DNA from: an uncultured Flavobacteriales bacterium
Lineage (GTDB): Bacteria; Bacteroidota; Bacteroidia; Flavobacteriales_D; Sanyastnellaceae
Reading direction: 5' to 3'
Length of the DNA stretch: 12,659 bases
Assembly: GCA_965659565.1 (NCBI GenBank)
Contig: CBFHWV010000057.1
Span: 1 to 12,659 of the forward strand
Below, piece after piece: positions 1,221 to 12,659 of the stretch. The position numbers were made by a program, and so were the translations under genes. The first letter of the stretch is position 1, and each line of letters opens with the position of its first letter. A model generated the notes under the pieces. It made no database searches and was not told where the DNA came from. It worked only from the letters and a program-made list of their open reading frames with translations.

Positions 1221-2341
1221 GGAACGCGTCATTTTGGATTCTCGCCCTCGTCCTCACCGCGTGCAGTGCGGAGGATTGGAATTGGAATCTGCCGCGGACC
1301 AATCCCGTGGACCCCGCGGTCAACACGGGCGCCACCTTGCCTGTGACCCTGTCGGCCCTCATCACGTCCAATTCGACGGCCACCCTCCGGGGCCGCATCG
1401 AGCCCTACACCCCGACCTTCAATGGCGCCGTGGCGTTGGAGTGGAAACCGGAGGGGGGAGAGTGGACGCGCATCCCGGCCAGCGAAGACGCGACCGGCCT
1501 CTTCGAGGCCAACCTCGGTGGGCTCTCGCCGGGCGGCGATTACGTCTGCCGGGCCTGGATGGGCATCGGCTCACTCGATGTGTGGGGGCAGGAATACGGG
1601 TTTACCATGCCGCTCTCGGCCGAAGACCTCGGGTGCACCGACGCTTCCGCCTGCAACTACGACGCCCAGGCCACCTTTGACGACGGCTCGTGCGAATACG
1701 CCCAATGGATCTGGCCGGACAACGACAGCGATGGGTACGGCGATGCCGATGCCCAGAGTGCCTTCGAATGCCCGCCCGTTCCGTCCGGCTATGTCCTCAA
1801 TGGCCAGGACTGCAATGACGACGAGTCCAGCGTTTACCCCGGTGCGCCCGCCACGGCGATGGGACTGGACAACGACTGCTCGGGGGTCATCGAGGAGGAC
1901 GAGGAGGCCCCGCCCTCAGCCTGTTGGGTCCACCACTGCGAGGACCTCGATGGCTTGACGGCGGAAATCACCTCCAATTGCTCCTCTGTTGGGGACTGGG
2001 CAGTCAGCACGGGATATGAAGGGGCGGGCATCGCAGCCATTTGTCCGGGGTATGTCGAATTCGACTACAATGAGTCTCAACCCTTTGAATTGAGGTTTTG
2101 GATGGTGGCGTACGATGCGGGCTTCTGGACCCAAGACATCCCCGTGGTCACGGTGAATGGAGGCATGCTCAACACGGAGATCATCACAGGAGACGACCAA
2201 GGAGGGGATGGTGACGACTGGCACCAACGGGCCTCTTTCAATGCGGTGCCTGCAGGCTCCGGTACCATCCGCATTTCCTTTCCCTACACGGGAGTGTACT
2301 CTCGCCGGCTCGATGAGATTGAGCTCTGGTGCAATCCCTGA
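1217..2341 (+). CDS. Cys-rich secreted lipoprotein. It has a lipobox signal (MRNASFWILALVLTAC), a CNYD-type motif (GCTDASACNYDAQATFDDGSCEY) and Asp-rich MopE-like stretches (DNDSDGYGDADAQ, GQDCNDDESSVYPGAP, GLDNDCSG).
   Basis: The internal ATG at 1217 (M26 of ORF 1142..2341) is followed by a hydrophobic h-region ending LTAC. The CNYD and DxDxDG-like repeats are typical of Bacteroidota surface proteins. The ATGA overlap with the upstream gene supports this start. Confidence 0.7.
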   Translation: MRNASFWILALVLTACSAEDWNWNLPRTNPVDPAVNTGATLPVTLSALITSNSTATLRGRIEPYTPTFNGAVALEWKPEGGEWTRIPASEDATGLFEANLGGLSPGGDYVCRAWMGIGSLDVWGQEYGFTMPLSAEDLGCTDASACNYDAQATFDDGSCEYAQWIWPDNDSDGYGDADAQSAFECPPVPSGYVLNGQDCNDDESSVYPGAPATAMGLDNDCSGVIEEDEEAPPSACWVHHCEDLDGLTAEITSNCSSVGDWAVSTGYEGAGIAAICPGYVEFDYNESQPFELRFWMVAYDAGFWTQDIPVVTVNGGMLNTEIITGDDQGGDGDDWHQRASFNAVPAGSGTIRISFPYTGVYSRRLDEIELWCNP

Positions 2342-2342
2342 G

Positions 2343-2498
2343 TCAGTCGTTCTTGTTGAGGATGACGAGGGCGGCGATGACGCCGGGTACCCAACCGCAT
2401 GCGGTCAGCAGGAGCACAATGAGGATGCTGCCGCACCCGCGGTCGAGGACGGCCAGGGGCGGAAACAGGATGGCGAGGATGACTTGAAGCACGGTCAT
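2343..2498 (-). CDS. Pmp3/YqaE (UPF0057) family stress-induced proteolipid, 51 aa.
   Basis: The internal Met (M35 of ORF 2343..2600) gives MTVLQVILAILFPPLAVLDRGCGSILIVLLLTACGWVPGVIAALVILNKND. This aligns colinearly with E. coli YqaE (two TM helices, conserved ILPPLGV-like motif) and has the typical family length of about 52 aa. Confidence 0.85.
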   Translation of the reverse strand: MTVLQVILAILFPPLAVLDRGCGSILIVLLLTACGWVPGVIAALVILNKND

Positions 2499-2537
2499 GC
2501 ATCGAAAATAGCCGAATCCCACGCCTTTGACCACTTG

Positions 2538-2561
2538 TTGAACTGGATTGAACTTTGAACC
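2538..2561. promoter_or_regulatory. Conserved cis-element TTGAACTGGATTGAACTTTGAACC. It has three TTGAAC-type half-sites with 10-bp phasing and lies in the divergent intergenic region between the pmp3-like gene (-) and 2593 (+).
   Basis: The 17-mer core ATTGAACTGGATTGAAC is identical to the one at 12126-12142 and matches 15/17 with the one at 6728-6744. All three copies lie in divergent promoter regions. Confidence 0.55.
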
Positions 2562-2592
2562 AAGGCGATTGGTCCTCATCTTCGGTTGAGCC

Positions 2593-2922
2593 ATGTCCAA
2601 GAACTACTACCTCGGCTGCATTGACAGCGAAAAGCGGGACATTGCCCGCCACCGTCGTGACATCGACAAATTGCGCGACGACAACCGTGATTTGATGGAG
2701 GACAAAAAGCGCGCCCGTGAGCGTTGCAAGCGCGCCCTCACCACCACCAAAGACCGCAGCCGCAAGGACAGCTACCGCAGCACCCGCGACCGCGAGCTCG
2801 ATCGCATCGATTCCAAGCGCGGTCGCAACAAGGAGAAAATCGCGGACCTCCGCGAGAAGATCCGGGGCTGCCGCGAGGACATCCAGGAGTACCGCGAGAA
2901 AATCCGCAACCTCCGCCGCTGA
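2593..2922 (+). CDS. Small, highly charged (more than half R/K/D/E) predicted coiled-coil protein of 109 aa. It resembles a hydrophilin/LEA-type protein. The family is unknown.
   Basis: ATG at 2593 with strong GC3 bias in this frame. The overlapping ORF 2717..2930 and the 5' part of 2717..3376 are the low-complexity alternate frames typical of GC-rich DNA. It lies 32 bp downstream of the 2538 motif. Confidence 0.6.
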   Translation: MSKNYYLGCIDSEKRDIARHRRDIDKLRDDNRDLMEDKKRARERCKRALTTTKDRSRKDSYRSTRDRELDRIDSKRGRNKEKIADLREKIRGCREDIQEYREKIRNLRR

Positions 2923-2956
2923 GCTGTTAAAATTTCATTCCTCAATACTCCATACC

Positions 2957-3376
2957 ATGGCCAAAGAAGTGACCGTACATGGCAGGAAACTCCTGCGAAC
3001 CCTCCAGAAAGAATTCACCGAGAAGTTTCCCTACCTCATTCTCGGATTCATCCACTCGGGTGACCGGGGAAAGTCCGTTGACGTCCGGGGGTTGGACACC
3101 TCGAAGAACATCAGCGCCACCCGAACAAAGACATCCAATGAGGAGATTTCCTTGCATGGTCGCACCAAAGTGAGCACCATGGAGGAAAAATTCTGGGATG
3201 AGCTGGGCATTGCCGTCCAGATTGCCGTCAAGGACTATCGCGGGCACAAATACTATTTCCCGATTGGCGATGGCTTCAATGAAAGGAGTTTGACCAAGGC
3301 CAATGCCTGGGCAGAGGCTGCAGGGTGTTCGGAGGTCGACGATATCGAGTCCATTTCTGGCCGGAACATCTTCTGA
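2957..3376 (+). CDS. Small tandem-repeat protein, paralog P3 (139 aa). It has two roughly 45-aa modules of the form G-R-K-L-x-x-L-x-x-E-F-x-E-x-F-G-x-x-V-Q-V.
   Basis: The internal ATG at 2957 (M81 of ORF 2717..3376) begins MAKEVTVHGRKLLRTLQKEFTEKFPYLILGF, and the second module is ISLHGRTKVSTMEEKFWDELGIAVQI. It is clearly homologous to 6798..7193, 7220..7585 and 6346..6660. Confidence 0.65.
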   Translation: MAKEVTVHGRKLLRTLQKEFTEKFPYLILGFIHSGDRGKSVDVRGLDTSKNISATRTKTSNEEISLHGRTKVSTMEEKFWDELGIAVQIAVKDYRGHKYYFPIGDGFNERSLTKANAWAEAAGCSEVDDIESISGRNIF

Positions 3377-3388
3377 ATTCTTGACCCC

Positions 3389-4243
3389 GTGACGAAAGAA
3401 GAAAGTCTGTTCCGGCAGTTCAAGCGGCTGAATCGGAAGAGCAGAGAAGCCTATGTGGTGTCCGGAATCTGGCACCGCATTGACAGCGATGAGGTGGAGA
3501 TGATTACGCAGCAGTATGTGCGGCGCAAGGAAGGCGGTCATGCCTTGACCGATGCTTATTTCCCCCAATTCAATCTCCACATCGAAGTGGACGAGGGATT
3601 TCACAGGAAGCAGGTGGTCCAGGACGATTTGCGCAAGCAGGACATTGTCGATGCGACGGGTCACGAGGTGGTGCGGATCAAGGCCGATGTGCCCCTGCGG
3701 GAGATTCACCGACAGATCGAGGGGGTGGCGGAACGGCTGAGGGCCGGGATGGATGCGCAACGCGCTGAGGGATCGTGGAAGCCATGGGACCCGACATTCC
3801 AGCATTCACCCGAACGGTATCGTGCTCTTGGTGAGGTGAGCATATCCAATGGGGCCGCATTTCACCGCATTGCCGACGCGTGCAACGCTTTTGGACATGA
3901 CTATTCCGGGTATCAAAAGGCTTGGGCCAGCAATCCTCTCGATTCAGGCACCTATCTGTGGTTTCCCAAACTGTACGAGAATCGGGACTGGGCCAATTCC
4001 CTGTCCGAGGATGGATGCACCATCACGGAGCTCTGTCTGAGTCCTCGGAAGTCCTTCCGGAAGGCGCACCATGACCGGGCCATGTCGAGGAACGTGGACC
4101 GGATCACCTTCGCTCATGGAAAGTCGCCACTGGGTGAAACGCTGTATCGGTTCGTTGGCGTGTTCCGCACGGACAAGGAGGCGAGTCACCCGGAGCGAGG
4201 CACCATTTATCGACGTGTGGCGACCTCAGCACCACTGCGTTAG
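3389..4243 (+). CDS. Fusion protein. The N-terminal part is a DUF559/Vsr-like PD-(D/E)xK endonuclease-fold domain, and the C-terminal domain of about 150 aa is unrecognised.
   Basis: TDAYFPQFNLHIEVDEGFH plus DDLRKQDIVDATGHEVVRIKADV match the DUF559 signature (DFYcP...L.vE.DGg.H ... D..Rd..L...G..VlRf.n.eV). The GTG start at 3389 lies 12 nt after P3. An alternative ATG at M38 is possible. Confidence 0.55.
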   Translation: MTKEESLFRQFKRLNRKSREAYVVSGIWHRIDSDEVEMITQQYVRRKEGGHALTDAYFPQFNLHIEVDEGFHRKQVVQDDLRKQDIVDATGHEVVRIKADVPLREIHRQIEGVAERLRAGMDAQRAEGSWKPWDPTFQHSPERYRALGEVSISNGAAFHRIADACNAFGHDYSGYQKAWASNPLDSGTYLWFPKLYENRDWANSLSEDGCTITELCLSPRKSFRKAHHDRAMSRNVDRITFAHGKSPLGETLYRFVGVFRTDKEASHPERGTIYRRVATSAPLR

Positions 4244-4413
4244 GTGAGTTCAGTGGCGGCGGCCCAGGAAGAGGCTGAGCAGCCATTTGCCGACTTTTCG
4301 CTGGCGGCCTTGTCGGGTCAACGGGATGCCCGTGAAGCGGGCAATCCGTTGCTTTAAAGTTTGAATGCCCAGCAGCCGACTGAGGCTCCACGAAAACCCG
4401 CACCTCCGCCCCA

Positions 4414-6267
4414 TCAGGCGAGTTGGTCGATGCGTTGCGCGATGACCTCACGCAGGCGGGGCAGACCCTCCTCAGAGAAGAGGGTGAAGCTCCACTGATC
4501 GGGAATGCTTTTGCCGCCCTCCTTGAATTCGATGTGGGCGTTGCCTTCCGGAGCAGGGACGCCGACCGGGTGGTAGACATGGCCCTTGATGATGAGCTTC
4601 TTGGCCTTGCAGTTGTGCAGTTTGGCGACCTTGTCCCGCCCCTTGTTGAGGGGCATGTAGGATGCAGTGACTTTGATGGCGCAGTCCCGCTCGGCCACGA
4701 AGGCCTCGAACATTTCACCCACTGAGCGCCAAAGGGGAAGGGCCTTTTGGTTGATGGCGGGGTCTTCCTTGAGGAAATTGTATTTGGACTCCATCGAGTC
4801 GAAGCGGACCACTTTGCCGCGCTTCTCCATGCCGCTCTTGCCCGCCACATCGTCGTCGACGTTGGTGATGGCAGCAAAGGACATGCTGCGTCCGAGCAGG
4901 TCATACAGGGTCTCGACGTCTTCCTCCTTTTTCCCCTCCGTGAGGGAGAAGGTGTCGCGCAAGAGGTTGAGCAGGTCCACGATGCTCTCCCATTTGGCTT
5001 TGAGGTAGGGGTCGCGCTTGCCGGCACCGAGGTCCCGGTTGCAGAACCCGTAGATGATCTGCTCCCAGACCTCGTCGGTCTTTCCCTTCATGCCATCGCC
5101 AAACTTGCTGACCGTTTCTGCGACCTCGGTCAGGTTCACGGAGAGCTTCTCGGCCATTCCGGGCTCCCAGTCGACATACTGGATGTCTTGGACCAGGAAG
5201 CGGAAGATCTTGGGGTAGCTGATCTGCAGTCCGAGGAGGGAAAACAGCATCAGATCGTCCTTGGCGTCGGGTTGGTCGCCGTCAAAGGCTTCCGGGTCGT
5301 CGCGGAAATCCGCATCGCGCAGGCTGCGCAGCAAGGAGAAACTGTTGAGGTAGCGCTTCAGGCTTCGGGGGTTGAAGCCCACCGTGTAGGTCACCACCTT
5401 GGCGTATTCGTCTTTGTACTCCTCGGGAATGGCAATGCCCATGCCGGAGAGCTTGTCTTGCATGAGCTCATCGATGGTGTAGGCCCCCGTCGGCATGGAG
5501 AATGGCACCTGGATGATCTTGTCGAAGAAGCTGCGGAATTCGCGCTCGTTCTCTTCGGTCTTCTCGCCGAATTTGCCCTCCAGGCCCTTGACGACCACCT
5601 CGTAGTCGATGGCCAGGACAAAGATGCAATTCGGGATGTCGAACATGTTTTTCAGCGCCTCGAGCACCTCCACGGCGTCTGTCGGCGGGATGCGGTCGAG
5701 GTCATCCACGAAAAAGACGACGCGCTTGTAGCTGTTCGACGGGTCGTCGAGCAGCTTTTGAATGATGGCCCGGATGTCTTCTTTGACGTCTGCGATTTCG
5801 GCCTGAACCGCTGCAGCATCTTCCCCGGCTGCTGCATCCATGATGTCCAAGCCCGTTTTGTTGGCGATGGCCTGGTTGCCGAGTCGGGTGAAAAAGCGCC
5901 CGACCTTTTTCATGGTTTGCTTGCTCTCGTCGTGGAGCGTCCATTGGCCCTCGGCTTCACAGCTGGCGATGAGCTTCTCGAGCATGCCGCGCAAGACGGC
6001 GGGTGTGGTTTCCGCCGCTCCGCGGAACATGCTGTACTCCCAAGTATTGACCCAGCTGGTCGCGATGTCCATGGCTTTGAGCTGCTCCCGCAGCATGTAC
6101 ATCATCGACGTTTTTCCCGTTCCCCACTCTCCTTGCAGTCCCACGGTCATGGGGGTGTCGCTCTTGGAAATGAACTGGGTCAGGGCGAGGGCGTAGCGCT
6201 TGGACTTGAGTTTGTCCTGGTCAACGCTCGTGATGGGCTTGTCGGTGATGCTGGAATGGTGGGTCAT
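4414..6267 (-). CDS. KAP-family P-loop NTPase, 617 aa and soluble, with no TM insert in the NTPase core. A C-terminal extension of about 130 aa has unknown function.
   Basis: It has Walker A LQGEWGTGKTS and Walker B VVFFVDDLDR. It has the KAP hallmark motifs IQVPFSMP and NPRSLKRYLNSF. The ATG at 6265-6267 is M3 of the ORF; ORF M1 is a TTG. Confidence 0.85.
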   Translation of the reverse strand: MTHHSSITDKPITSVDQDKLKSKRYALALTQFISKSDTPMTVGLQGEWGTGKTSMMYMLREQLKAMDIATSWVNTWEYSMFRGAAETTPAVLRGMLEKLIASCEAEGQWTLHDESKQTMKKVGRFFTRLGNQAIANKTGLDIMDAAAGEDAAAVQAEIADVKEDIRAIIQKLLDDPSNSYKRVVFFVDDLDRIPPTDAVEVLEALKNMFDIPNCIFVLAIDYEVVVKGLEGKFGEKTEENEREFRSFFDKIIQVPFSMPTGAYTIDELMQDKLSGMGIAIPEEYKDEYAKVVTYTVGFNPRSLKRYLNSFSLLRSLRDADFRDDPEAFDGDQPDAKDDLMLFSLLGLQISYPKIFRFLVQDIQYVDWEPGMAEKLSVNLTEVAETVSKFGDGMKGKTDEVWEQIIYGFCNRDLGAGKRDPYLKAKWESIVDLLNLLRDTFSLTEGKKEEDVETLYDLLGRSMSFAAITNVDDDVAGKSGMEKRGKVVRFDSMESKYNFLKEDPAINQKALPLWRSVGEMFEAFVAERDCAIKVTASYMPLNKGRDKVAKLHNCKAKKLIIKGHVYHPVGVPAPEGNAHIEFKEGGKSIPDQWSFTLFSEEGLPRLREVIAQRIDQLA

Positions 6268-6288
6268 GGTCAATGGGGTTTGGGGCCG

Positions 6289-6320
6289 AAAAAAACCGCG
6301 CGGCTTTGAGGGCCGCGCGG
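6289..6320 (-). terminator. Rho-independent terminator for the P4 gene. A 9-bp all-GC stem (CCGCGCGGC/GCCGCGCGG) with a 7-nt loop is followed by a run of 7 U on the minus-strand transcript.
   Basis: The plus strand reads aaaaaaaCCGCGCGGCtttgagGGCCGCGCGG at 6289-6320. On the minus strand this is a hairpin followed by UUUUUUU. It lies about 25 nt downstream of the P4 stop and about 20 nt upstream of the KAP ATG. Confidence 0.75.
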
Positions 6321-6345
6321 GAAATTGTCAGAAGGGAAGAACGCC

Positions 6346-6660
6346 TCAGGAGAGGCTGCCCAGTTTCGCGCTGTTGTCGGCGAGCTCGCTGTCGTCGGCG
6401 CTGGCCACTTGGACCTTCACACCGATTTCTTTCATGAAACGCTCCTCCACCGTCTTCACGAGCATGTTGCCGTGCAGGTCGACAGCACCGTCCCCATCGG
6501 GGCGCTCGTTGTTGTGGCGTGCGCTTGCCAAGGTCTCATCGTCGTCGGCGTACTTCTTGCCCATGCCTTTGTAAACGCGCAGGGTGGCGCCGTACTCCTC
6601 TTTGAATTGGGCCTTGATGGTCTTCACTTTCGTGTTGCCGGATGCTTTGATGTCAGCCAT
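6346..6660 (-). CDS. Small tandem-repeat protein, paralog P4 (104 aa).
   Basis: The ATG at 6658-6660 (M10 of ORF 6346..6687, whose M1 is TTG) begins MADIKASGNTKVKTIKAQFKEEYGATLRVYKG. The second module is VDLHGNMLVKTVEERFMKEIGVKVQV. Confidence 0.65.
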   Translation of the reverse strand: MADIKASGNTKVKTIKAQFKEEYGATLRVYKGMGKKYADDDETLASARHNNERPDGDGAVDLHGNMLVKTVEERFMKEIGVKVQVASADDSELADNSAKLGSLS

Positions 6661-6726
6661 GATCTTCGAATTGGTTTGTTGTGACAAGATGGGGGATGGG
6701 CTTCAAAATTCCGCGTGCCATCCTCA

Positions 6727-6757
6727 AATTGAACTAAATTGAACTGGGTTCAAATGC
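6727..6757. promoter_or_regulatory. Conserved cis-element AAATTGAACTAAATTGAACTGGGTTCAAATG. It has two direct TTGAAC sites 10 bp apart plus an inverted GTTCAA (TTGAAC-N3-GTTCAA palindrome), and lies between the divergent P4 (-) and P1 (+) genes.
   Basis: The sequence was read directly. The 15/17 match to the 2538 and 12119 elements is what ties this copy to the other two. Confidence 0.55.
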
Positions 6758-6797
6758 GAGAATTTCTGAGCTTTCTGCCTGTCAAAAACCGTCCCTG

Positions 6798-7193
6798 ATG
6801 AGTACCGAAATCACCACCACCGGATCGAAGAAGATCAAGACCCTGAAGAAGCAGTTCAACGAAAAGTTTCCGTTTCTCCGTTTGGGGTTGTTCCCCTCTT
6901 CATCCAAAGTGGATGTCGCCAACGGCAAGACCATCACCAACCTCGATGCCGACAAGACGTTGTCTGCGGTTCGTGAAAAGGTCGGGGATGGGGACATCTC
7001 CATTCACGGTCGGAAGCTGGTGAAGAACCTCGAAGCGGAATTTGAGGAGGTGTTTGGATTGTATGCCCAAGTCTGCTGGACCAGCGGTGACGGTAAGCGT
7101 TATTACACCACGGGCAGCGACCAAGACAAGAGCCTCACTGCGCTCAACCGCGAAAAGGAGGCAGAAGGCGCCAAGAAGGGCGCTTGGGAATGA
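6798..7193 (+). CDS. Small tandem-repeat protein, paralog P1 (131 aa).
   Basis: The first module is KKIKTLKKQFNEKFPFLRLGLF...DKTLSAV and the second is ISIHGRKLVKNLEAEFEEVFGLYAQV...DKSLTAL. ATG at 6798. The frame has high GC3. Confidence 0.7.
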   Translation: MSTEITTTGSKKIKTLKKQFNEKFPFLRLGLFPSSSKVDVANGKTITNLDADKTLSAVREKVGDGDISIHGRKLVKNLEAEFEEVFGLYAQVCWTSGDGKRYYTTGSDQDKSLTALNREKEAEGAKKGAWE

Positions 7194-7219
7194 ACCCCAA
7201 CTGAAAACATCAAGAACAC

Positions 7220-7585
7220 ATGCTCAAGAATCTCGTCAACCGCATCGCGGACAACTTCGACCGCGAAGAATTCGGCGTTGCGCCGCAGAAGAAACTCAAG
7301 ACCATTTCCAAGGACTTCCAGGCCGCATTCGGTCTCGAGCTGGTCTTTTACAAGGGCAAAAAGATTGCTGAGGGCGATCTGACCTTGGCTGGACTGAACA
7401 AGAAGACGGCTGATTCCGTGGACGCGAAGGCCGGCGACATGAAGATCAAGGCGAGCATGTCCGTGGGTGAGGTCGAGGATTTGTTCAAGTCCAACTTCGG
7501 CACGACTGTCCAGATCAAGTCCGGCGGCAAGCTGGTCGACAATAAGACCTCCCTCGGCGATGCCCGGCGTGCCGCTGAAGGCTGA
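7220..7585 (+). CDS. Small tandem-repeat protein, paralog P2 (121 aa).
   Basis: The first module is KKLKTISKDFQAAFGLELVFYKG and the second is SMSVGEVEDLFKSNFGTTVQIKSG. It begins 26 bp after P1 on the same strand. Confidence 0.7.
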   Translation: MLKNLVNRIADNFDREEFGVAPQKKLKTISKDFQAAFGLELVFYKGKKIAEGDLTLAGLNKKTADSVDAKAGDMKIKASMSVGEVEDLFKSNFGTTVQIKSGGKLVDNKTSLGDARRAAEG

Positions 7586-8273
7586 GGCCGCCTGGGGCTG
7601 GGCGAAAGAGCGCAACGAAGGCTTCAAGTCATGGTCGGACCGGTGGTCTGATCGAATCGGCATCGATGCACCGTCGATCCGGAAGGCGGTCTTGTGCTTT
7701 GTCTTCCTGTTCATTTGCACCCCGCTGGGGCAATTGATCGCATGGGTTCAATTCAGCGGTTATGCCCCGACCATGGATGAGTACACCGCCCAGCAGGAGG
7801 AGTACCACGACCAGTTCATGGCCTTCTTATCGGATTACCTTCCGGACGATCCGGCGGGCGATGATCTGTATCACGAGACATTGCGCAGCATGACCCAAGG
7901 GATGCGGAATGCTGCGGACATGGGAGCAAGTGGCATGGCCTGGATGGTGGACCACACCCTTTCCATGTCCACAACGGCCACGAAGTATGTCCTCGATGCA
8001 TGGAAGGCGTTCAAAATCTACCTCTTCAGTTGGATTTACGGGAGCATCCTGTACCTCGTGGCGTTCAGTTTTCTGACCGATCTGATCACGCAAAAGGTGC
8101 AGCACCGGTTTTGGAAAGGCCTGAACAGCGTCACGGGCTGGAAGCTCAAGGAGCAGGGTTTCCTCTTCGGTGCGATTCTGACGCTGATCCTGTGGCTGAC
8201 CCCGGTAGGCGACGTTATGGAAGCAGGGTTCAACGCCATTCACTGGATCACCTACGACGCGCTCTATTCTTGA
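7560..8273 (+). CDS. Multi-pass membrane protein of unknown function, with at least 3 hydrophobic helices.
   Basis: ORF 7467..8273. The first ATG in frame is at 7560 (M32), which overlaps the P2 3' end by 26 nt. GC3 is high from 7560 onward. The TM segments are AVLCFVFLFICTPLGQLIAWV, IYLFSWIYGSILYLVAFSFLTDLI and FLFGAILTLILWLTPVG. The exact start is uncertain; the alternatives are GTG at 7569 or TTG at about 7692. Confidence 0.55.
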   Translation: MPGVPLKAEAAWGWAKERNEGFKSWSDRWSDRIGIDAPSIRKAVLCFVFLFICTPLGQLIAWVQFSGYAPTMDEYTAQQEEYHDQFMAFLSDYLPDDPAGDDLYHETLRSMTQGMRNAADMGASGMAWMVDHTLSMSTTATKYVLDAWKAFKIYLFSWIYGSILYLVAFSFLTDLITQKVQHRFWKGLNSVTGWKLKEQGFLFGAILTLILWLTPVGDVMEAGFNAIHWITYDALYS

Positions 8274-8321
8274 TGGAGCCGTACCACGAGGTGGGACAAA
8301 TCTGGACCGCGAGCGGAGTGG

Positions 8322-8831
8322 TCATGTGTTCCCCCTGCTCAACGCTTTGTTGATTCGCTTGGTCAAGGCTTTCCATGCCTTGTGAAGGGCTTCTGCGCCT
8401 TCCGTGTCTTCAGCTGAATTCCACCACGAGACTTTGGTCGCCGCGGCTTGCGATTCTGCCATGTCCAACATGCGCTCGAGGGACGGTCTGTCCTGAGCCA
8501 GAATGGCGGCGCCGACGACGTTGGCCTTGGCGTGGTTGATCATGTTTTCAAGGCTCATCGATTCTTCGAAGACCTCAGTCTGGAAACTGTCCATCATGCG
8601 ATGGACCAAACCGGACCAGCTGCTGTCATGAGAGCGTTTGGTTCTGCTGAGATGCGCTTCACGTGCGGCAGTTTCAGCGTCGAGAAGGGCTTGTTGAAGT
8701 TGCTTCAACGGGTCGATTCCTGTTTCACCCGCCCCTTCTTGTTCCGAAGTCACAGGTATGGCGTGTCCACACCATTCGCATTCCCGGTCGAATGAGATTT
8801 CCGTGGGGTTCTTGCACTGTGGGCACTTCAT
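8322..8831 (-). CDS. Zinc-ribbon protein of 169 aa. It has an N-terminal CxxC...CxxC ribbon followed by an alpha-helical domain. It is possibly a YdjG-like partner of the SPFH protein.
   Basis: The internal ATG at 8829-8831 (M36 of ORF 8322..8936) begins MKCPQCKNPTEISFDRECEWCGH. Its ATG overlaps the upstream gene's stop codon (ATGA on the minus strand). Confidence 0.6.
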   Translation of the reverse strand: MKCPQCKNPTEISFDRECEWCGHAIPVTSEQEGAGETGIDPLKQLQQALLDAETAAREAHLSRTKRSHDSSWSGLVHRMMDSFQTEVFEESMSLENMINHAKANVVGAAILAQDRPSLERMLDMAESQAAATKVSWWNSAEDTEGAEALHKAWKALTKRINKALSRGNT

Positions 8832-10129
8832 GATGAAGGGTTGGTTTGAGAGGTTCCGCAGTTCGGACAAAATTTGGCGCCCACAGCCGACGGGTCTCCG
8901 CATGAAATGCAACCGGTGGACATGGGTTTGTTGCAATCAAAGCACACACTGACATCCTGTGCTTGGTCTGCGCCACAGTGGGGGCATGGATTGTAAGGGT
9001 CACCACAGTGCGGACAGAACTTACAGGAGGCGTCAAATGTCGCTTTGCATTTGTCACACGCGATGGAGGGTGTAGCTGGGCTGGTGGGTGCAGGTGGTGG
9101 TGCCTCGGTCCCATTTCCACAAGCTCCGCAGAACTTGGATTGGGGCGCCATGGGGGCCTGGCATTGGGTGCATTTTTCCGGGTTCATGGATTGTGTGACC
9201 ATGCCGGACAAATTGCCTGCAAGGGGCATGGCCATGCCCAAACCCAGCACCGTTCCGAGAAGCCCGGAGCCCGATCCGTCTCCACCGCCACCAGTTCCTG
9301 CTGTACCGATGCTTTCTGCGGCGGCTTGGGACACATCGAAGGAGCGTTCGACGGTGAAGGTTTGCAGTTGTTCTTGCCGGCGCTTCAGGCGCATGCGCTC
9401 TTCCATGTCCTCCTCCATCAAGCGGTGATACGAATCGAGGACTTGCTGCACCCGGGGATCCTCATCCACAATGGACACCGCCTCGATTTGGAACATCAGG
9501 AGTTCCAATCCAAAATCGGCCATGCTTCGGGCAATCGGCGGGGTCGCGATTTGATTGAGGGACATGACCTCAGTCTCCAATTCAAAAGGGGAGAGGGAAA
9601 GGGCTTTCATCACCTGTCCAAAAGCGGATCGAACCTGCTCGTTGATGACCCCGCGGAAGACCTTGCGAAGGCTCTTTTGATCGTAGTTCTTGGTAACGCC
9701 AACGAGGTCCACCAGAAATTTCCGACTGTCCGAAATGCGGATGCTGTAGCTGCCGCGGCTGGCAATGGGCACCGGCAGGCGGAACTTCTCCTCCATCACC
9801 TTGAAGGGGATGAGCCCCCATTTGGAGTCTTGAGACACGGACTTGTTGACAAAGAACACCTCGGCCTTGAACGGACTGTCCCCACCTGTGGCCAGTGCCA
9901 AAAGGTCGGTGAGGAGCGGAAGGTTGTATGCGGATAGGGTGTGGGTGCCTGGTCCGAATACGTCGAGAATTTTGCCACCGCGGTAGAACACGGCCTCCTG
10001 AGATTCATTGACAACGAGTTGGCTGCCAAAACGGAGTTCTTCGGTCCGTTTGGGATTGCGGTCCGATGACCATTTCCAGACGAGCTCGTCGTTTGGGCCG
10101 TCGTATTTGAGGACGTTGATGATGGGCAT
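8828..10129 (-). CDS. SPFH/Band-7-fold protein of the YdjI/COG4260 type (putative virion core protein-like), with a C-terminal tail of about 117 aa carrying about 8 CxxC pairs (multiple zinc ribbons).
   Basis: M51 of ORF 8828..10279 begins MPIINVLKYDGPNDELVWKW...LRFGSQLVVNESQEAVFYRGGKILDVFGPGTHTL, which matches the conserved N-terminal region of B. subtilis YdjI-like proteins. The C-terminal ...KFCPNCG ribbon is also as in YdjI. The start lies 1 nt after the upstream lipoprotein's stop. Confidence 0.75.
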   Translation of the reverse strand: MPIINVLKYDGPNDELVWKWSSDRNPKRTEELRFGSQLVVNESQEAVFYRGGKILDVFGPGTHTLSAYNLPLLTDLLALATGGDSPFKAEVFFVNKSVSQDSKWGLIPFKVMEEKFRLPVPIASRGSYSIRISDSRKFLVDLVGVTKNYDQKSLRKVFRGVINEQVRSAFGQVMKALSLSPFELETEVMSLNQIATPPIARSMADFGLELLMFQIEAVSIVDEDPRVQQVLDSYHRLMEEDMEERMRLKRRQEQLQTFTVERSFDVSQAAAESIGTAGTGGGGDGSGSGLLGTVLGLGMAMPLAGNLSGMVTQSMNPEKCTQCQAPMAPQSKFCGACGNGTEAPPPAPTSPATPSIACDKCKATFDASCKFCPHCGDPYNPCPHCGADQAQDVSVCFDCNKPMSTGCISCGDPSAVGAKFCPNCGTSQTNPSS

Positions 10130-10130
10130 G

Positions 10131-12065
10131 TCAGGCGGGCTGGGAGCGCAATGGGATTTTGACACTGCCTTTGTCGGTTGACAAATGCAGGTAAGGCAGG
10201 TCTTCGAGGGCGTCAGTGGTTTTGAATCGGTACTCAATGTAGTCTGCTGTGATGCGCTTCTCTCGAGGATAGACGGCATCGGGCAGGTGCATTTCGTTCA
10301 GGGAAACATATGGGTTGAGTTGAATCAATGCCCGGTCAAATCGAACTGTTCCGGTGGTGTAAACATATCCCTCCTCAAAGTCCAGTTCTGCCCCTTCTGC
10401 AATGGCTTGAAGTTCAGGTGACACATTGCGCTTGGCATCGATGGCTTCTTGGGCTCGCTTGAGTTTGAAGTCGTCTGAATCGACCCACGCGACGATGTCA
10501 TCGGTGACGAGGACGCCACGGATGTGAACGACATCCTTCAGGACTTCTTTGGGTTGTCCCTTCCATTCGAACTCCACAACGGCCGGGTCATCGAAAGACT
10601 GGGCTTCAAAAGGGCCAATGGCGCGGATCGCTCCGGGAACCTCAAATACTTCGTACGTATTGCGATAAGTCTCTGTGAAGTGGATGCAGAGGTAGAGTCT
10701 GACATTTTCGAGGTTTCGGCTCGAATGGTTGGCGATGTTGGCGAAAAGAGAATTGTCTTTGTCCATCACACCCCCCTCCTCAATGGAGATGTCGAGAAAC
10801 GAATTCTCGACCAGGAGGCTGTTGATGGCCTCAGGAAGTTCTTGTTGGCAAAAGATGAGGTCGGTCGGCAGGTAATCTTGCACGACTTGGCCGCCTCTTC
10901 GAAAGAAGTGCATTCGAATCTCTTCTTGGGCGGCGTCGACATCACCTTTATTCAGATAGATCGCCGCCTTTTGGAAGTTGGGTGAGAATGCGCCAAATCC
11001 TTCCATGGTGGATTTGTAGAGCTCGAGTACAAATTCGGATTCAACAGAGGTCCCAAAGTAGCCGCGGGCCTTGTAGGGGTTGACCATGTCCAAAAGCAAC
11101 TCGGCTTGCTTGGGATACATCAATGCGGCCTCATCAAACAACGTCATGGCCCGAGACTCATTTCCAGCCCTCGCAGCCAGCATGCCTTGGAGCAGCAGTC
11201 CGGGGGCGGATTGACCTGGATAGAGTTGCAGATATCTGTCCATCATGGACTCGAGTTCCTGCAGGGATGAGGACGTCAGCTCTGGGGAATCCGGAGCTGC
11301 CAGTGCTGCAGGTTTCATGAGTGTACTGTAGACTTTCAACAGCATGCTCTCCCGGTCGTTTGGGGCCATGTCGAGCGCTTGATTGGCCAGGGTTTCGGCC
11401 GCGGCATAGTCACCGTGATGAATGGACAAGTAGGCCTGGTCGCGCACCACACAAAACGCATCCCATTCTTTCATGTACTTCAGGAAGGCTGCGGATGATT
11501 TCTCCAAGTAGGTGGTGTAGGCTTGAGAGGCCGCATCCAGCTTTTTGGCGACCGCTTCGTCACGTTTGTGTCGTTCTGAGGCGGCACCCATGGCCCCTTT
11601 TCCGGCTTTCAGAATGCTCATGGTGGCGCTGACGGGGTCCGCTCCCAATGCAGAAATGGCCCCGGATACAGCGAGTTGAGCTGGGCCTTGAAAGTCTTGA
11701 AATGCCTGCCAAGCAGATTCGTTCGACTCCTTGTCCGCGCGCGCTGCCCTCATTTCTCTGACCACGGGCATCATGAAGGCTTGGGCGGCGATCACATCTG
11801 GGGCTACGCCGGCATAGTCGTAGGTGGCAAGGAATTGGGTGTAGGCATCGAAATCTTTGAGGCGAGAAGGCCCCTCTTCCAGTGCATAGATGACCCGCAC
11901 GGTTTGTTCAAGATTGTACTCATGGGTCTCGGATGCCTTGGCTTCCAATTCATTGGCCAGCTTGTCAAGGTCATCCGCAACGGGGGCATTCCCGCCGCAT
12001 GCCGCCAGCATCAGGGCGCAGCAGAAAAAGGTGAAAGAGAGAAAGTGGTTAGGGAAGGCTTTCAT
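10131..12065 (-). CDS. Lipoprotein of 644 aa. It has a lipobox signal (MKAFPNHFLSFTFFCCALMLAACGG), a TPR-like helical-repeat middle region and an unknown C-terminal domain. It is the first gene of the lipoprotein-SPFH-zinc-ribbon operon.
   Basis: M81 of ORF 10131..12305. The 80 aa upstream ([18 protein letters not shown]...) are not coding-like. The signal peptide with LAAC lipobox sits immediately after this Met. Confidence 0.65.
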   Translation of the reverse strand: MKAFPNHFLSFTFFCCALMLAACGGNAPVADDLDKLANELEAKASETHEYNLEQTVRVIYALEEGPSRLKDFDAYTQFLATYDYAGVAPDVIAAQAFMMPVVREMRAARADKESNESAWQAFQDFQGPAQLAVSGAISALGADPVSATMSILKAGKGAMGAASERHKRDEAVAKKLDAASQAYTTYLEKSSAAFLKYMKEWDAFCVVRDQAYLSIHHGDYAAAETLANQALDMAPNDRESMLLKVYSTLMKPAALAAPDSPELTSSSLQELESMMDRYLQLYPGQSAPGLLLQGMLAARAGNESRAMTLFDEAALMYPKQAELLLDMVNPYKARGYFGTSVESEFVLELYKSTMEGFGAFSPNFQKAAIYLNKGDVDAAQEEIRMHFFRRGGQVVQDYLPTDLIFCQQELPEAINSLLVENSFLDISIEEGGVMDKDNSLFANIANHSSRNLENVRLYLCIHFTETYRNTYEVFEVPGAIRAIGPFEAQSFDDPAVVEFEWKGQPKEVLKDVVHIRGVLVTDDIVAWVDSDDFKLKRAQEAIDAKRNVSPELQAIAEGAELDFEEGYVYTTGTVRFDRALIQLNPYVSLNEMHLPDAVYPREKRITADYIEYRFKTTDALEDLPYLHLSTDKGSVKIPLRSQPA

Positions 12066-12118
12066 GAGGAGGAAAATAGGCAGCGAATCATTGGAAAGGT
12101 GGTCAGTGGCTGTGTCGA

Positions 12119-12143
12119 GTTCAAATTGAACTGGATTGAACCC
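12119..12143. promoter_or_regulatory. Conserved cis-element GTTCAAATTGAACTGGATTGAACCC. It has an inverted GTTCAA followed by two direct TTGAAC sites, and lies in the divergent region between the lipoprotein operon (-) and purL (+).
   Basis: The 17-mer core is identical to the one at 2538-2554. It sits 54 bp upstream of the lipoprotein ATG (minus strand) and about 148 bp upstream of the purL ATG. Confidence 0.55.
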
Positions 12144-12289
12144 TGCTTTTTTGATGGCGTGGCGATGTGTGGTTTGGTTCTTCTTCAGCTGTTGGAAAAG
12201 CCCCATGAGGCGAATGAGGTGAGGTCGGGTCAGGTGCAGGTGCGGGCGTACCTTCGCGGGACGATTTCGCACCCCGATACGTTCGCAAC

Positions 12290-12659
12290 ATGGCCCAACG
12301 CGCATCCACTGCCCCCGCCACCCTCGAGCAAGCCCAAGAGATGGGCCTGCGCCCCGAGGAATTCGACCTGATCAAGGAGATCCTTGGACGGACCCCCAAC
12401 TTCACCGAGATGTGCATCTACTCGGTCATGTGGTCCGAGCACTGCAGCTACAAGAACTCGATCCAGTGGCTGAAGACCCTGCCCAAGGATGGTCCGCATT
12501 TGCTGGTCAAAGCCGGGGAGGAAAACGCCGGCATTGTCGACATCGGCGACGGCATCGGGTGTGCCTTCAAAATCGAGAGCCACAACCACCCCAGTGCGCT
12601 GGAGCCTTACCAGGGGGCCGCGACCGGCGTGGGTGGCATCAACCGCGACATCTTCACCA
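12290..12659 (+). CDS. purL: Phosphoribosylformylglycinamidine synthase subunit PurL (FGAM synthase II). The N-terminal 123 aa are present and the gene is 3'-truncated by the window edge.
   Basis: [57 protein letters not shown]...GIVDIGDG...[30 protein letters not shown] is colinear with the B. subtilis PurL N-terminus ([40 protein letters not shown]). It is not in the ORF track because there is no stop codon inside the window. Confidence 0.92.

Follow-up and report, generated by a model that had tools for sequence, protein, structure and literature searches.

A short sequence that recurs in the divergent intergenic regions of one stretch of DNA raises the question of whether it is a regulatory site, a part of the promoters themselves or some kind of repeat, and of which genes it would serve. 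The stretch considered here, referred to as the window, is 12,659 nt of a Flavobacteriales-like metagenome contig. It has only three divergent intergenic regions (2499-2592, 6661-6797 and 12066-12289), and each holds one copy of an element in which two direct TTGAAC half-sites are separated by 4 nt. The copies, all on the plus strand, were named site 1 (2538-2553), site 2 (6724-6744) and site 3 (12119-12141). Comparison with related genomes suggests that the element is probably a cis-regulatory protein-binding site, that is, an operator or activator site, specific to a narrow high-GC subclade of uncultured marine Flavobacteriales-like bacteria.

The element and its three copies

Sites 1 and 3 share the 16-mer TTGAACTGGATTGAAC exactly (2538-2553 and 12126-12141), and site 2 contains the related sequence TTGAACTAAATTGAAC (6729-6744). 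A first-pass annotation of the window had described an identical 17-mer at two positions. When this 17-mer was searched for in the window, allowing up to 3 mismatches, it was found exactly at 12125-12141 (ATTGAACTGGATTGAAC), with 1 mismatch at 2537-2553 (GTTGAACTGGATTGAAC) and with 2 mismatches at 6728-6744 (ATTGAACTAAATTGAAC), together with a weaker match at 6738-6754 that overlaps the last of these. The recurrence is real, but the exact shared string is the 16-mer TTGAACTGGATTGAAC; likewise the position of site 2 (6728-6744) and its description as a 15/17 match were correct, but the coordinates given for sites 1 and 3 were one base too high.

The motif search showed site 1 to be a TTGAAC-TGGA-TTGAAC tandem directed towards the gene for a charged coiled-coil protein, with a third direct TTGAAC half-site at 2555-2560. 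Site 2, delimited by the motif search and by alignment, is an extended block, TCAAATTGAACTAAATTGAAC, flanked by P4 on the minus strand and P1 on the plus strand, and an inverted GTTCAA half-site lies beyond it at 6748-6753. Site 3 reads GTTCAA-A-TTGAAC-TGGA-TTGAAC, the extra GTTCAA occupying 12119-12124, and is placed between a lipoprotein gene (minus strand) and purL (plus strand). Sites 2 and 3 have TCAAATTGAACT..ATTGAAC in common. All three copies are in the same, direct orientation, and seven of the eight plus-strand TTGAAC hexamers of the window lie inside the sites.

The first-pass annotation had held that an exact long repeat pair would have a negligible chance of arising at random. This was too strong: by simple arithmetic about 0.04 exact 16-mer pairs are expected in 12.7 kb when both strands are counted. 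Chance was therefore assessed with 1000 dinucleotide-preserving shuffles, in which any tandem hexamer with a period of 7-12 bp was scored if it occurred at least 3 times, as a correction for the look-elsewhere effect. None of the 1000 shuffles contained such a hexamer; the maximum was 2 occurrences, in 3.7% of shuffles. Chance falls far short of explaining a triple tandem whose copies all lie in the divergent spacers, which together span about 455 nt. The copies have dissimilar flanks, in agreement with the earlier view that this is not a transposed repeat.

Automatic gene calls run the lipoprotein reading frame across site 3 (691 aa in the NCBI record, 725 aa in L001, an identical Logan contig) and the Pmp3 reading frame across site 1 (78 aa in L001). 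Homologues of the lipoprotein are about 635-660 aa long, however, and a lipoprotein signal peptide is present when the protein is read from the shorter start. For Pmp3, the gene call in L126, a contig of the same subclade, gives an ortholog of 51 aa, and it is to residues 3-46 of the 51-aa form that the Pfam Pmp3 domain matches. The homologue lengths, the signal peptide and the 51-aa Pmp3 form therefore favour the shorter starts, at 12065 for the lipoprotein and 2498 for Pmp3, and with these starts sites 3 and 1 are intergenic. The claim that the only three divergent promoter regions of the window hold the sites thus stands.

Conservation and candidate target genes

Syntenic contigs were reached via homologues of the P family, the small paralogous proteins P1-P4. 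The high-GC subclade (GC 0.58-0.62) consists of the window, L126 (L127-L131 are identical in the region) and L212/L213; the other lineages (GC 0.51-0.54) are L214-L229, L132 and L133, in which P4 is 88-90% identical. Third codon positions are 61-77% identical between the window and L126 or L212, and 61-88% across all three lineages.

The tandem is kept at the orthologous positions of sites 1 and 2 in all three high-GC lineages. Site 1 is TTGAACTGAATTGAAC in L126 (3028-3043) and TTGAACCGAATTGAAC in L212 (11776-11791, minus strand), so that its consensus is TTGAAC[TC]G[GA]ATTGAACT; the consensus of site 2 is TCAAATTGAACT[AG]AATTGAAC. The period of TTGAAC-N4-TTGAAC is 10 bp in all 7 instances in the three lineages. 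At site 2, 20 of the 21 positions of the block are invariant among the window, L126 and L212, against 25 of 118 (21%) in the remainder of the spacer (Fisher p = 7.5e-11), and at site 1 the counts are 15 of 17 against 16 of 91 (18%; p = 3e-8). The tandem lies 68 nt from the P4 ATG in each of the three lineages and 39 nt from the Pmp3 ATG in the window and L126, the two that have Pmp3. The orientation of the sites relative to the charged-protein gene and to P1/P2 is also kept, and this holds for L212 too, although its contig has the entire locus the other way round.

In each of the three lineages the tandem of site 2 comes with an inverted arm, TTCAA-A-TTGAAC, and the same is true of site 3 in the window. 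The third half-sites reported by the first-pass annotation are all present in the window (2555-2560, 6748-6753 and 12119-12124), but the extra TGAACC half-site of site 1 and the TTGAAC-N3-GTTCAA palindrome of site 2 are specific to it, having no counterpart in L126 or L212.

Thus a motif search upstream of the orthologs in relatives found the element at sites 1 and 2 (L126 and L212) and not at site 3. At two of the three sites the alignment shows purifying selection on the element, as would be expected of a protein-binding site. With this footprint and the result of the shuffles (0/1000), the claim of a real, non-random motif in promoter regions was borne out.

The comparison also indicates which genes go with the element. 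Pmp3 is missing in both L212 and L214. L212 nevertheless retains site 1; as in L126, 47 nt separate the site from the charged-protein gene downstream, and the upstream gene in L212 is the 3' end of a MopE-like gene. Since site 1 persists in L212 without Pmp3, it was assigned to the operon of the charged 109-aa protein, P3 and the nuclease, and Pmp3, which had been named as a target, is not consistently linked to the element in these genomes. At site 2, L212 lacks P1 and the site stands between P4 and a P2-like gene.

The gene purL, another of the targets first proposed, has a promoter of its own. About 70 nt upstream of it (12200-12289 in the window, plus strand) are conserved in all lineages, including those without the motif; in an alignment of six lineages this stretch appears as a conserved promoter/leader that includes TACCTTCG at 12249-12256 and is independent of the TTGAAC element. 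No TTGAAC tandem was found upstream of purL in L126, L212 or L214. With its own conserved promoter, and with upstream regions in relatives that have no tandem, purL does not appear to be a target. The conserved stretch itself reads GTCAGGTGAAGG...GTACCTTCGCGGGACGATTTCGCACCCC in both subclades and could be a TACCTTCG-box promoter followed by a leader. The possibility that this leader is a riboswitch was discarded, as RNAalifold gave only a weak hairpin with almost no covariation.

Site 3 lies at the edge of a block of about 4.6 kb (membrane protein, 169-aa protein, SPFH protein and lipoprotein; about 7560-12200) that is found between P2 and purL in the window only. In L126, L212 and L214-L220 purL comes directly after P2 or after a 67-aa gene, with neither block nor tandem. 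The intervening DNA is the 67-aa gene in L126 and about 240 nt in L214-L220. In L122 the operon of the lipoprotein, SPFH protein and protein of about 170 aa is found in a different context. No tandem was seen upstream of the lipoprotein orthologs of L122-L125 (60-82% identity, different genomic contexts), and the ortholog in L122 has only a single GTTCAA upstream. The SPFH/lipoprotein operon, which had also been put forward as a target, would therefore be at best a recent recruit.

An envelope or osmotic stress regulon had been proposed on the strength of Pmp3, SPFH and a 'hydrophilin-like' label. This proposal is not supported, as Pmp3 is dispensable for the site and SPFH is specific to the window. 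The conserved targets would instead be small beta-grasp-like paralogs, a coiled-coil protein, a homologue of methyl-directed restriction enzymes and a KAP (PifA/QatA-like) NTPase.

Predicted promoters and alternative explanations

Promoters of Bacteroidetes have a -33 element, TTG, and a -7 element, TAnnTTTG or TAnnTTGY, and -7 boxes were predicted by setting this flavobacterial consensus at -12 to -5 (PMC9723704). For the charged-protein promoter the predicted -7-like box is CATCTTCG (2577-2584, plus strand), which places the half-sites at -51 and -41; in L126 and L212 the tandem is followed at an equal distance by TTTCTTGG. For P1 it is GAGCTTTC (6768-6775, plus strand), with AATTTCTG at 6761-6768 as an alternative, and the half-sites are again at -51 and -41; the counterparts, 23-24 nt after the tandem, are GAGATTCT in L126 and GAGATTTC in L212. 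In all three lineages, 22-24 nt separate the second TTGAAC of either site from a T-rich -7-like box downstream. Measured from these weak predicted boxes, the half-sites are at -51/-41 in the charged-protein promoter of the window, L126 and L212 and in the P1 promoter of the window and L126, and at -52/-42 in the P2-like promoter of L212.

On the minus strand, a TAnnTTGY-like box, CATCTTGT (6684-6691), is predicted for P4, with the promoter-proximal edge of the tandem at -50; CATATTGC and GATATTCC stand at the same position in L126 and L212, respectively. The -7-like box predicted for the lipoprotein gene is TATTTTCC (12071-12078, minus strand), with the proximal edge at -60 and a transcript that would be nearly leaderless. 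The proximal edges of the minus-strand promoters, at -40 for Pmp3, -50 for P4 and -60 for the lipoprotein according to the predicted boxes, differ by steps of one helical turn. The Pmp3 box TATTTTCG (2496-2510, minus strand) and the lipoprotein box TATTTTCC (in 12063-12078, minus strand) end 4-5 nt before the ATG, and the L122 ortholog of the lipoprotein has TACATTCC just before its ATG. The Pmp3 and lipoprotein mRNAs are predicted to be leaderless or nearly so; leaderless mRNAs are rare (about 5%) in Flavobacterium (PMC9723704). A sigma-54 reading of TGGCACGCGGAATTTTG at site 2 was rejected because the sequence is not conserved in L126 or L212.

In the proposed mechanism a dimeric transcription factor would bind both of the direct TTGAAC half-sites, which their 10-bp spacing puts on one face of the helix, and the bound factor would control the adjoining promoters; site 2, and site 3 of the window, have a further (G)TTCAA arm. 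Its targets would be the operon of the charged protein, P3 and the restriction enzyme at site 1 and the divergent pair P4(-KAP NTPase)/P1-P2 at site 2, the window having a third copy upstream of the newly acquired lipoprotein-SPFH operon. The element is short, restricted to the promoter spacers of a few promoters, invariant amid changing flanks and fixed in distance and orientation, and for these reasons it is read as the site of a transcription factor, to which protein would bind. The tandem would lie at about -51 to -36 of the plus-strand promoters, a class-II-like position. Such a position is typical of OmpR/PhoB-type activators. The predicted positions would suit a class-II-like activator or a repressor overlapping the -33 region. 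The first-pass annotation had suggested an OmpR/PhoB-like regulator, with which the 10-bp direct-repeat geometry is compatible; no gene for such a regulator was found in the window or in the neighbourhoods covered in relatives. Given the inverted arm TTCAA-A-TTGAAC, the regulator might instead be a dimer or tetramer of another kind.

The element is confined to few places. The tandem is absent from L214-L229, L132 and L133 despite their 88-90% identical P4. More distant P1 orthologs were collected by a profile search of metagenomes with an alignment of P1 orthologs, which gave 80 loci, mostly from low-GC flavobacteria and rumen Bacteroidales; the 580 kb around them contained no match to the tandem with at most 1 mismatch. 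Within the subclade, the other promoter spacers (L212 15827-16000, L231 4489-4549, the purL upstream regions and the spacer before the 67-aa gene of L126) are without the element, and the extra flanking DNA available from L230 and L231 holds no further copies of the motif. As it does not occur in distant relatives, in sister lineages or at the subclade's other promoters, the element is neither a dispersed repeat nor a general promoter feature. The exact 16-mer gave at least 120 single matches in species-representative genomes (185,579 scanned), in unrelated phyla and one per stretch, as chance would produce, and no genome with many copies was among the matches listed. A dispersed repeat family, which would have undone the original proposal, was looked for and not found: the window has three copies with unrelated flanks, and the 580 kb of related loci have none. 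A structured RNA element was also rejected. Rfam gave no match at any site, even at E <= 1, and the window-specific TTGAAC..GTTCAA palindrome at site 2 is not conserved.

Other sequences are found in some of the lineages without the tandem. In the GC-0.53 sister clade (L214-L219; for example L217, about 9540-9570) TGTACCA-N4-TGTACCA, with an 11-bp period, lies upstream of the charged-protein operon and may be a replaced operator. In the rearranged L226/L227 the upstream regions of the charged-protein gene and P1 share the 11-mer CAACTGAAATC, which resembles the motif core AACTGAAT; this suggests that co-regulation of the modules may persist while the site drifts.

Several findings weigh against a transcription factor site. 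The footprint rests on only three independent motif-bearing lineages and few comparisons. The predicted -7-like boxes match the consensus at only 4-5 of 6 positions and are not mapped starts, and the -51/-41 coincidence, at two sites and in two or three independent promoters, is suggestive but not significant. Site 3 is specific to the window as far as the compared genomes go, with no conserved counterpart. No transcription factor gene was found in the window or in the neighbourhoods of about 20 kb from relatives, and full-text searches of the literature found no known regulator with a TTGAAC-N4-TTGAAC box.

Could the element be part of the core promoter instead? It might be an extended -33/-35 region for the primary sigma factor, which would read the TTG of TTGAAC, or the -35 region (TGAAC) of an extracytoplasmic function (ECF)-type sigma factor. 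This is considered unlikely. TTG is indeed the -33 element of Bacteroidetes, with TAnnTTTG and TAnnTTGY as -7 boxes (PMC9723704), and at site 2 of the window and L126 [AG]ATTTCTG stands exactly 19 nt downstream of the second TTG, but this relation fails at site 1 in L126 and L212. The conserved 16-21 nt, which include both repeats, extend far beyond a -33 element of 3-4 nt, and other promoters in these genomes lack the element. It is well established that tandem duplication is foreign to sigma -35 elements. The ECF version draws on site 3, where TGAAC-N16-CGT stands beside a TPR/Band-7 operon, and on F. psychrophilum, whose Band-7 and TPR genes are listed under ECF-like SM6 promoters (PMC9723704); in none of the lineages, however, do sites 1 and 2 have a conserved CGT-type -10 element with a constant spacing of 16-17 nt.

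Explanations in which the element has no regulatory role fare worse. It is very unlikely that the copies are targets or scars of the rearrangements that shuffle gene modules. Modules are rearranged between lineages (L226-L229 against the window) with breakpoints in intergenic spacers, the order in L226-L229 being P2 | P4, then nuclease-P3-charged protein, then KAP, then P1; site 3 is at the edge of the block of about 4.6 kb found only in the window; and the three copies are in direct orientation. Yet the rearranged L226-L229 are without the tandem, the motif bounds the block on one side only, and exchange between the direct repeats would delete P1 and P2, both of which are retained. No recombinase, integrase or transposase was found in the window or its relatives, the 21-mer has no match in viral contigs, and strict conservation at fixed distances from starts in syntenic, non-rearranged genomes fits regulation. 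Equally remote is a functionless leftover, whether from promoters duplicated along with the P-family genes or from spacers that exchanged sequence by gene conversion. The operons that follow sites 1 and 2 both contain P-family paralogs (P3; P1, P2 and P4), and a common promoter origin is conceivable, but the paralogs are only 33-37% identical and neutral promoter DNA of that age would be randomised. The motif is instead identical or nearly so between sites and lineages, with adjacent bases about 20% invariant, and the dissimilar flanks speak against recent conversion tracts longer than the motif. Chance and neutral ancestry are excluded by the shuffle test and the invariance counts.

A binding site for a transcription factor therefore remains the preferred explanation. 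If confirmed, it would join the very few regulatory sites that have been defined in uncultured marine Flavobacteriales, it could be used as a position weight matrix to delineate the regulon in metagenome-assembled genomes, and it would offer a handle on a conserved cluster of uncharacterised small proteins beside defence-like genes. It would also be a case of fast operator turnover, strictly kept in lineages about 13% diverged in coding DNA and gone or remodelled where P4 is 88-90% identical. It would otherwise be an ordinary bacterial operator with no bearing on a major open question.

Neighbouring genes and known systems

The gene map of the window was based on Pfam, PADLOC and the gene calls on L001. 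To the left of site 1 is the Pmp3 proteolipid gene (2343-2498, minus strand; Pfam 4.8e-12). To its right is an operon (2593-4243, plus strand) that comprises the gene for the charged coiled-coil protein (2593-2922; Pfam and gene calls), P3 (2957-3376) and a homologue of the PvuRts1I/SRA-type methyl-directed restriction enzymes (3389-4243; Pfam, and PADLOC mREase_II 2e-87). The charged-protein gene contains, at 2833-2906, three 21-bp (7-codon) direct repeats, GAGAAAATCGCGGACCTCCGC..., which encode heptad-like EKI(A/R)(D/G)(L/C)R in the highly charged coiled-coil protein.

On the minus side of site 2 are P4 (6346-6660, minus strand) and a KAP-family NTPase of the PifA/QatA/PDC-S20-like type (4414-6267, minus strand; Pfam and PADLOC), with a terminator-like hairpin between them (6296-6320). 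A sub-threshold Rfam match to suhB/mmgR (6281-6363, minus strand; 35.8 bits against a gathering score of 41, E = 2e-4) overlaps this hairpin and is probably a terminator artefact, the family being alphaproteobacterial. P1 (6798-7193), P2 (7220-7585) and a membrane protein (7560-8273) are encoded downstream of site 2 on the plus strand. An operon on the minus strand (8322-12065) then encodes the 169-aa protein (8322-8831), the SPFH/zinc-ribbon protein (8828-10129) and the TPR lipoprotein (10131-12065), the homologues of which are annotated as Flavobacteriaceae or Psychroflexus proteins. The purL gene starts at 12290 (plus strand). Start codons in the window are without Shine-Dalgarno sequences. 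This is typical of Bacteroidota.

P1-P4 are paralogs, 33-37% identical, and belong to a family with more than 1200 homologues in Bacteroidota. The predicted structure of P1 is a two-repeat alpha/beta protein with weak beta-grasp matches, and NCBIfam and PHROGs gave nothing informative for the small proteins. Homologues of P1 from rumen and gut (L168 5277-5795; L166, L171, L176, L180-L182 and others) have an N-terminal Lys/Ala/Pro-rich tail, MAVTKKTSAKPAAKKTIAKAAPAKKAAPK..., which resembles histone H1 and bacterial nucleoid proteins and hints that the family may associate with nucleic acid. A speculative extension, to which little credence is given, is that the tandem is the operator by which a clade-specific regulator turns on or off a conserved chromosomal cluster in which P1-P4 are interspersed with the defence-type genes, that this regulator is possibly an autoregulated P-family protein, and that the P family would be new small DNA-binding regulators or nucleoid proteins.

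The gene of the mREase_II homologue converges on that of the KAP NTPase (PifA/QatA/PDC-S20-related; 3389-6267). Many relatives (L212-L221) have this defence-type pair in synteny beside purL, which suggests a stable part of the chromosome and not a mobile island. In L230 two giant genes (1556-7900; 1073 and 1037 aa), one with Tubulin_2 (PF13809), adjoin a 615-aa gene that neighbours the cluster in L212.

The motif was not found described, and it belongs to a familiar kind, the direct-repeat operators of bacteria. OmpR/PhoB-type response regulators, which are winged-helix proteins, act as dimers on direct half-sites one helical turn apart. Their boxes (the pho box of PhoB, or GTAAA-N5-GTAAA for CpxR) resemble the element in having two direct half-sites with one-turn spacing, 10 bp here, and in being common to several promoters; they lie just upstream of or overlapping the upstream promoter element, where the predicted position of the tandem (-51 to -36) would also put it. 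They differ in that the half-site TTGAAC is not known to match any such box and none was found in the literature, that many members of the family use an 11-bp period, and that the inverted arm TTCAA-A-TTGAAC of sites 2 and 3 is atypical. OmpR/PhoB systems differ also in that no response regulator or kinase gene is near the element, at which binding is putative.

The elements of the Bacteroidetes primary sigma factor (PMC9723704) share with it a TTG and a place in promoter spacers, 19-24 nt upstream of T-rich -7-like boxes. The TTGAAC element, however, is longer, stricter and duplicated, and occurs at only two or three promoters of the subclade, being absent from the others examined. In ECF promoters, such as SM6 of F. 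psychrophilum (-35 GAAC, about 16-17 nt, -10 CGT; PMC9723704), the -35 core is like TGAAC, and site 3 has CGT 16 nt downstream. Unlike them, the element is a tandem pair with no conserved -10 CGT at sites 1 and 2, and the TGAAC-N16-CGT of site 3 is on the plus strand, directed towards purL and away from the lipoprotein/SPFH operon. Repetitive extragenic palindromes and bacterial interspersed mosaic elements (REP/BIME) and miniature inverted-repeat transposable elements (MITEs) are likewise short sequences that recur in intergenic DNA; the element differs from these in having no flanking homology, hairpin or high copy number, with no multi-copy family among the matches listed, and in occupying divergent promoter spacers and not the 3' ends of genes.

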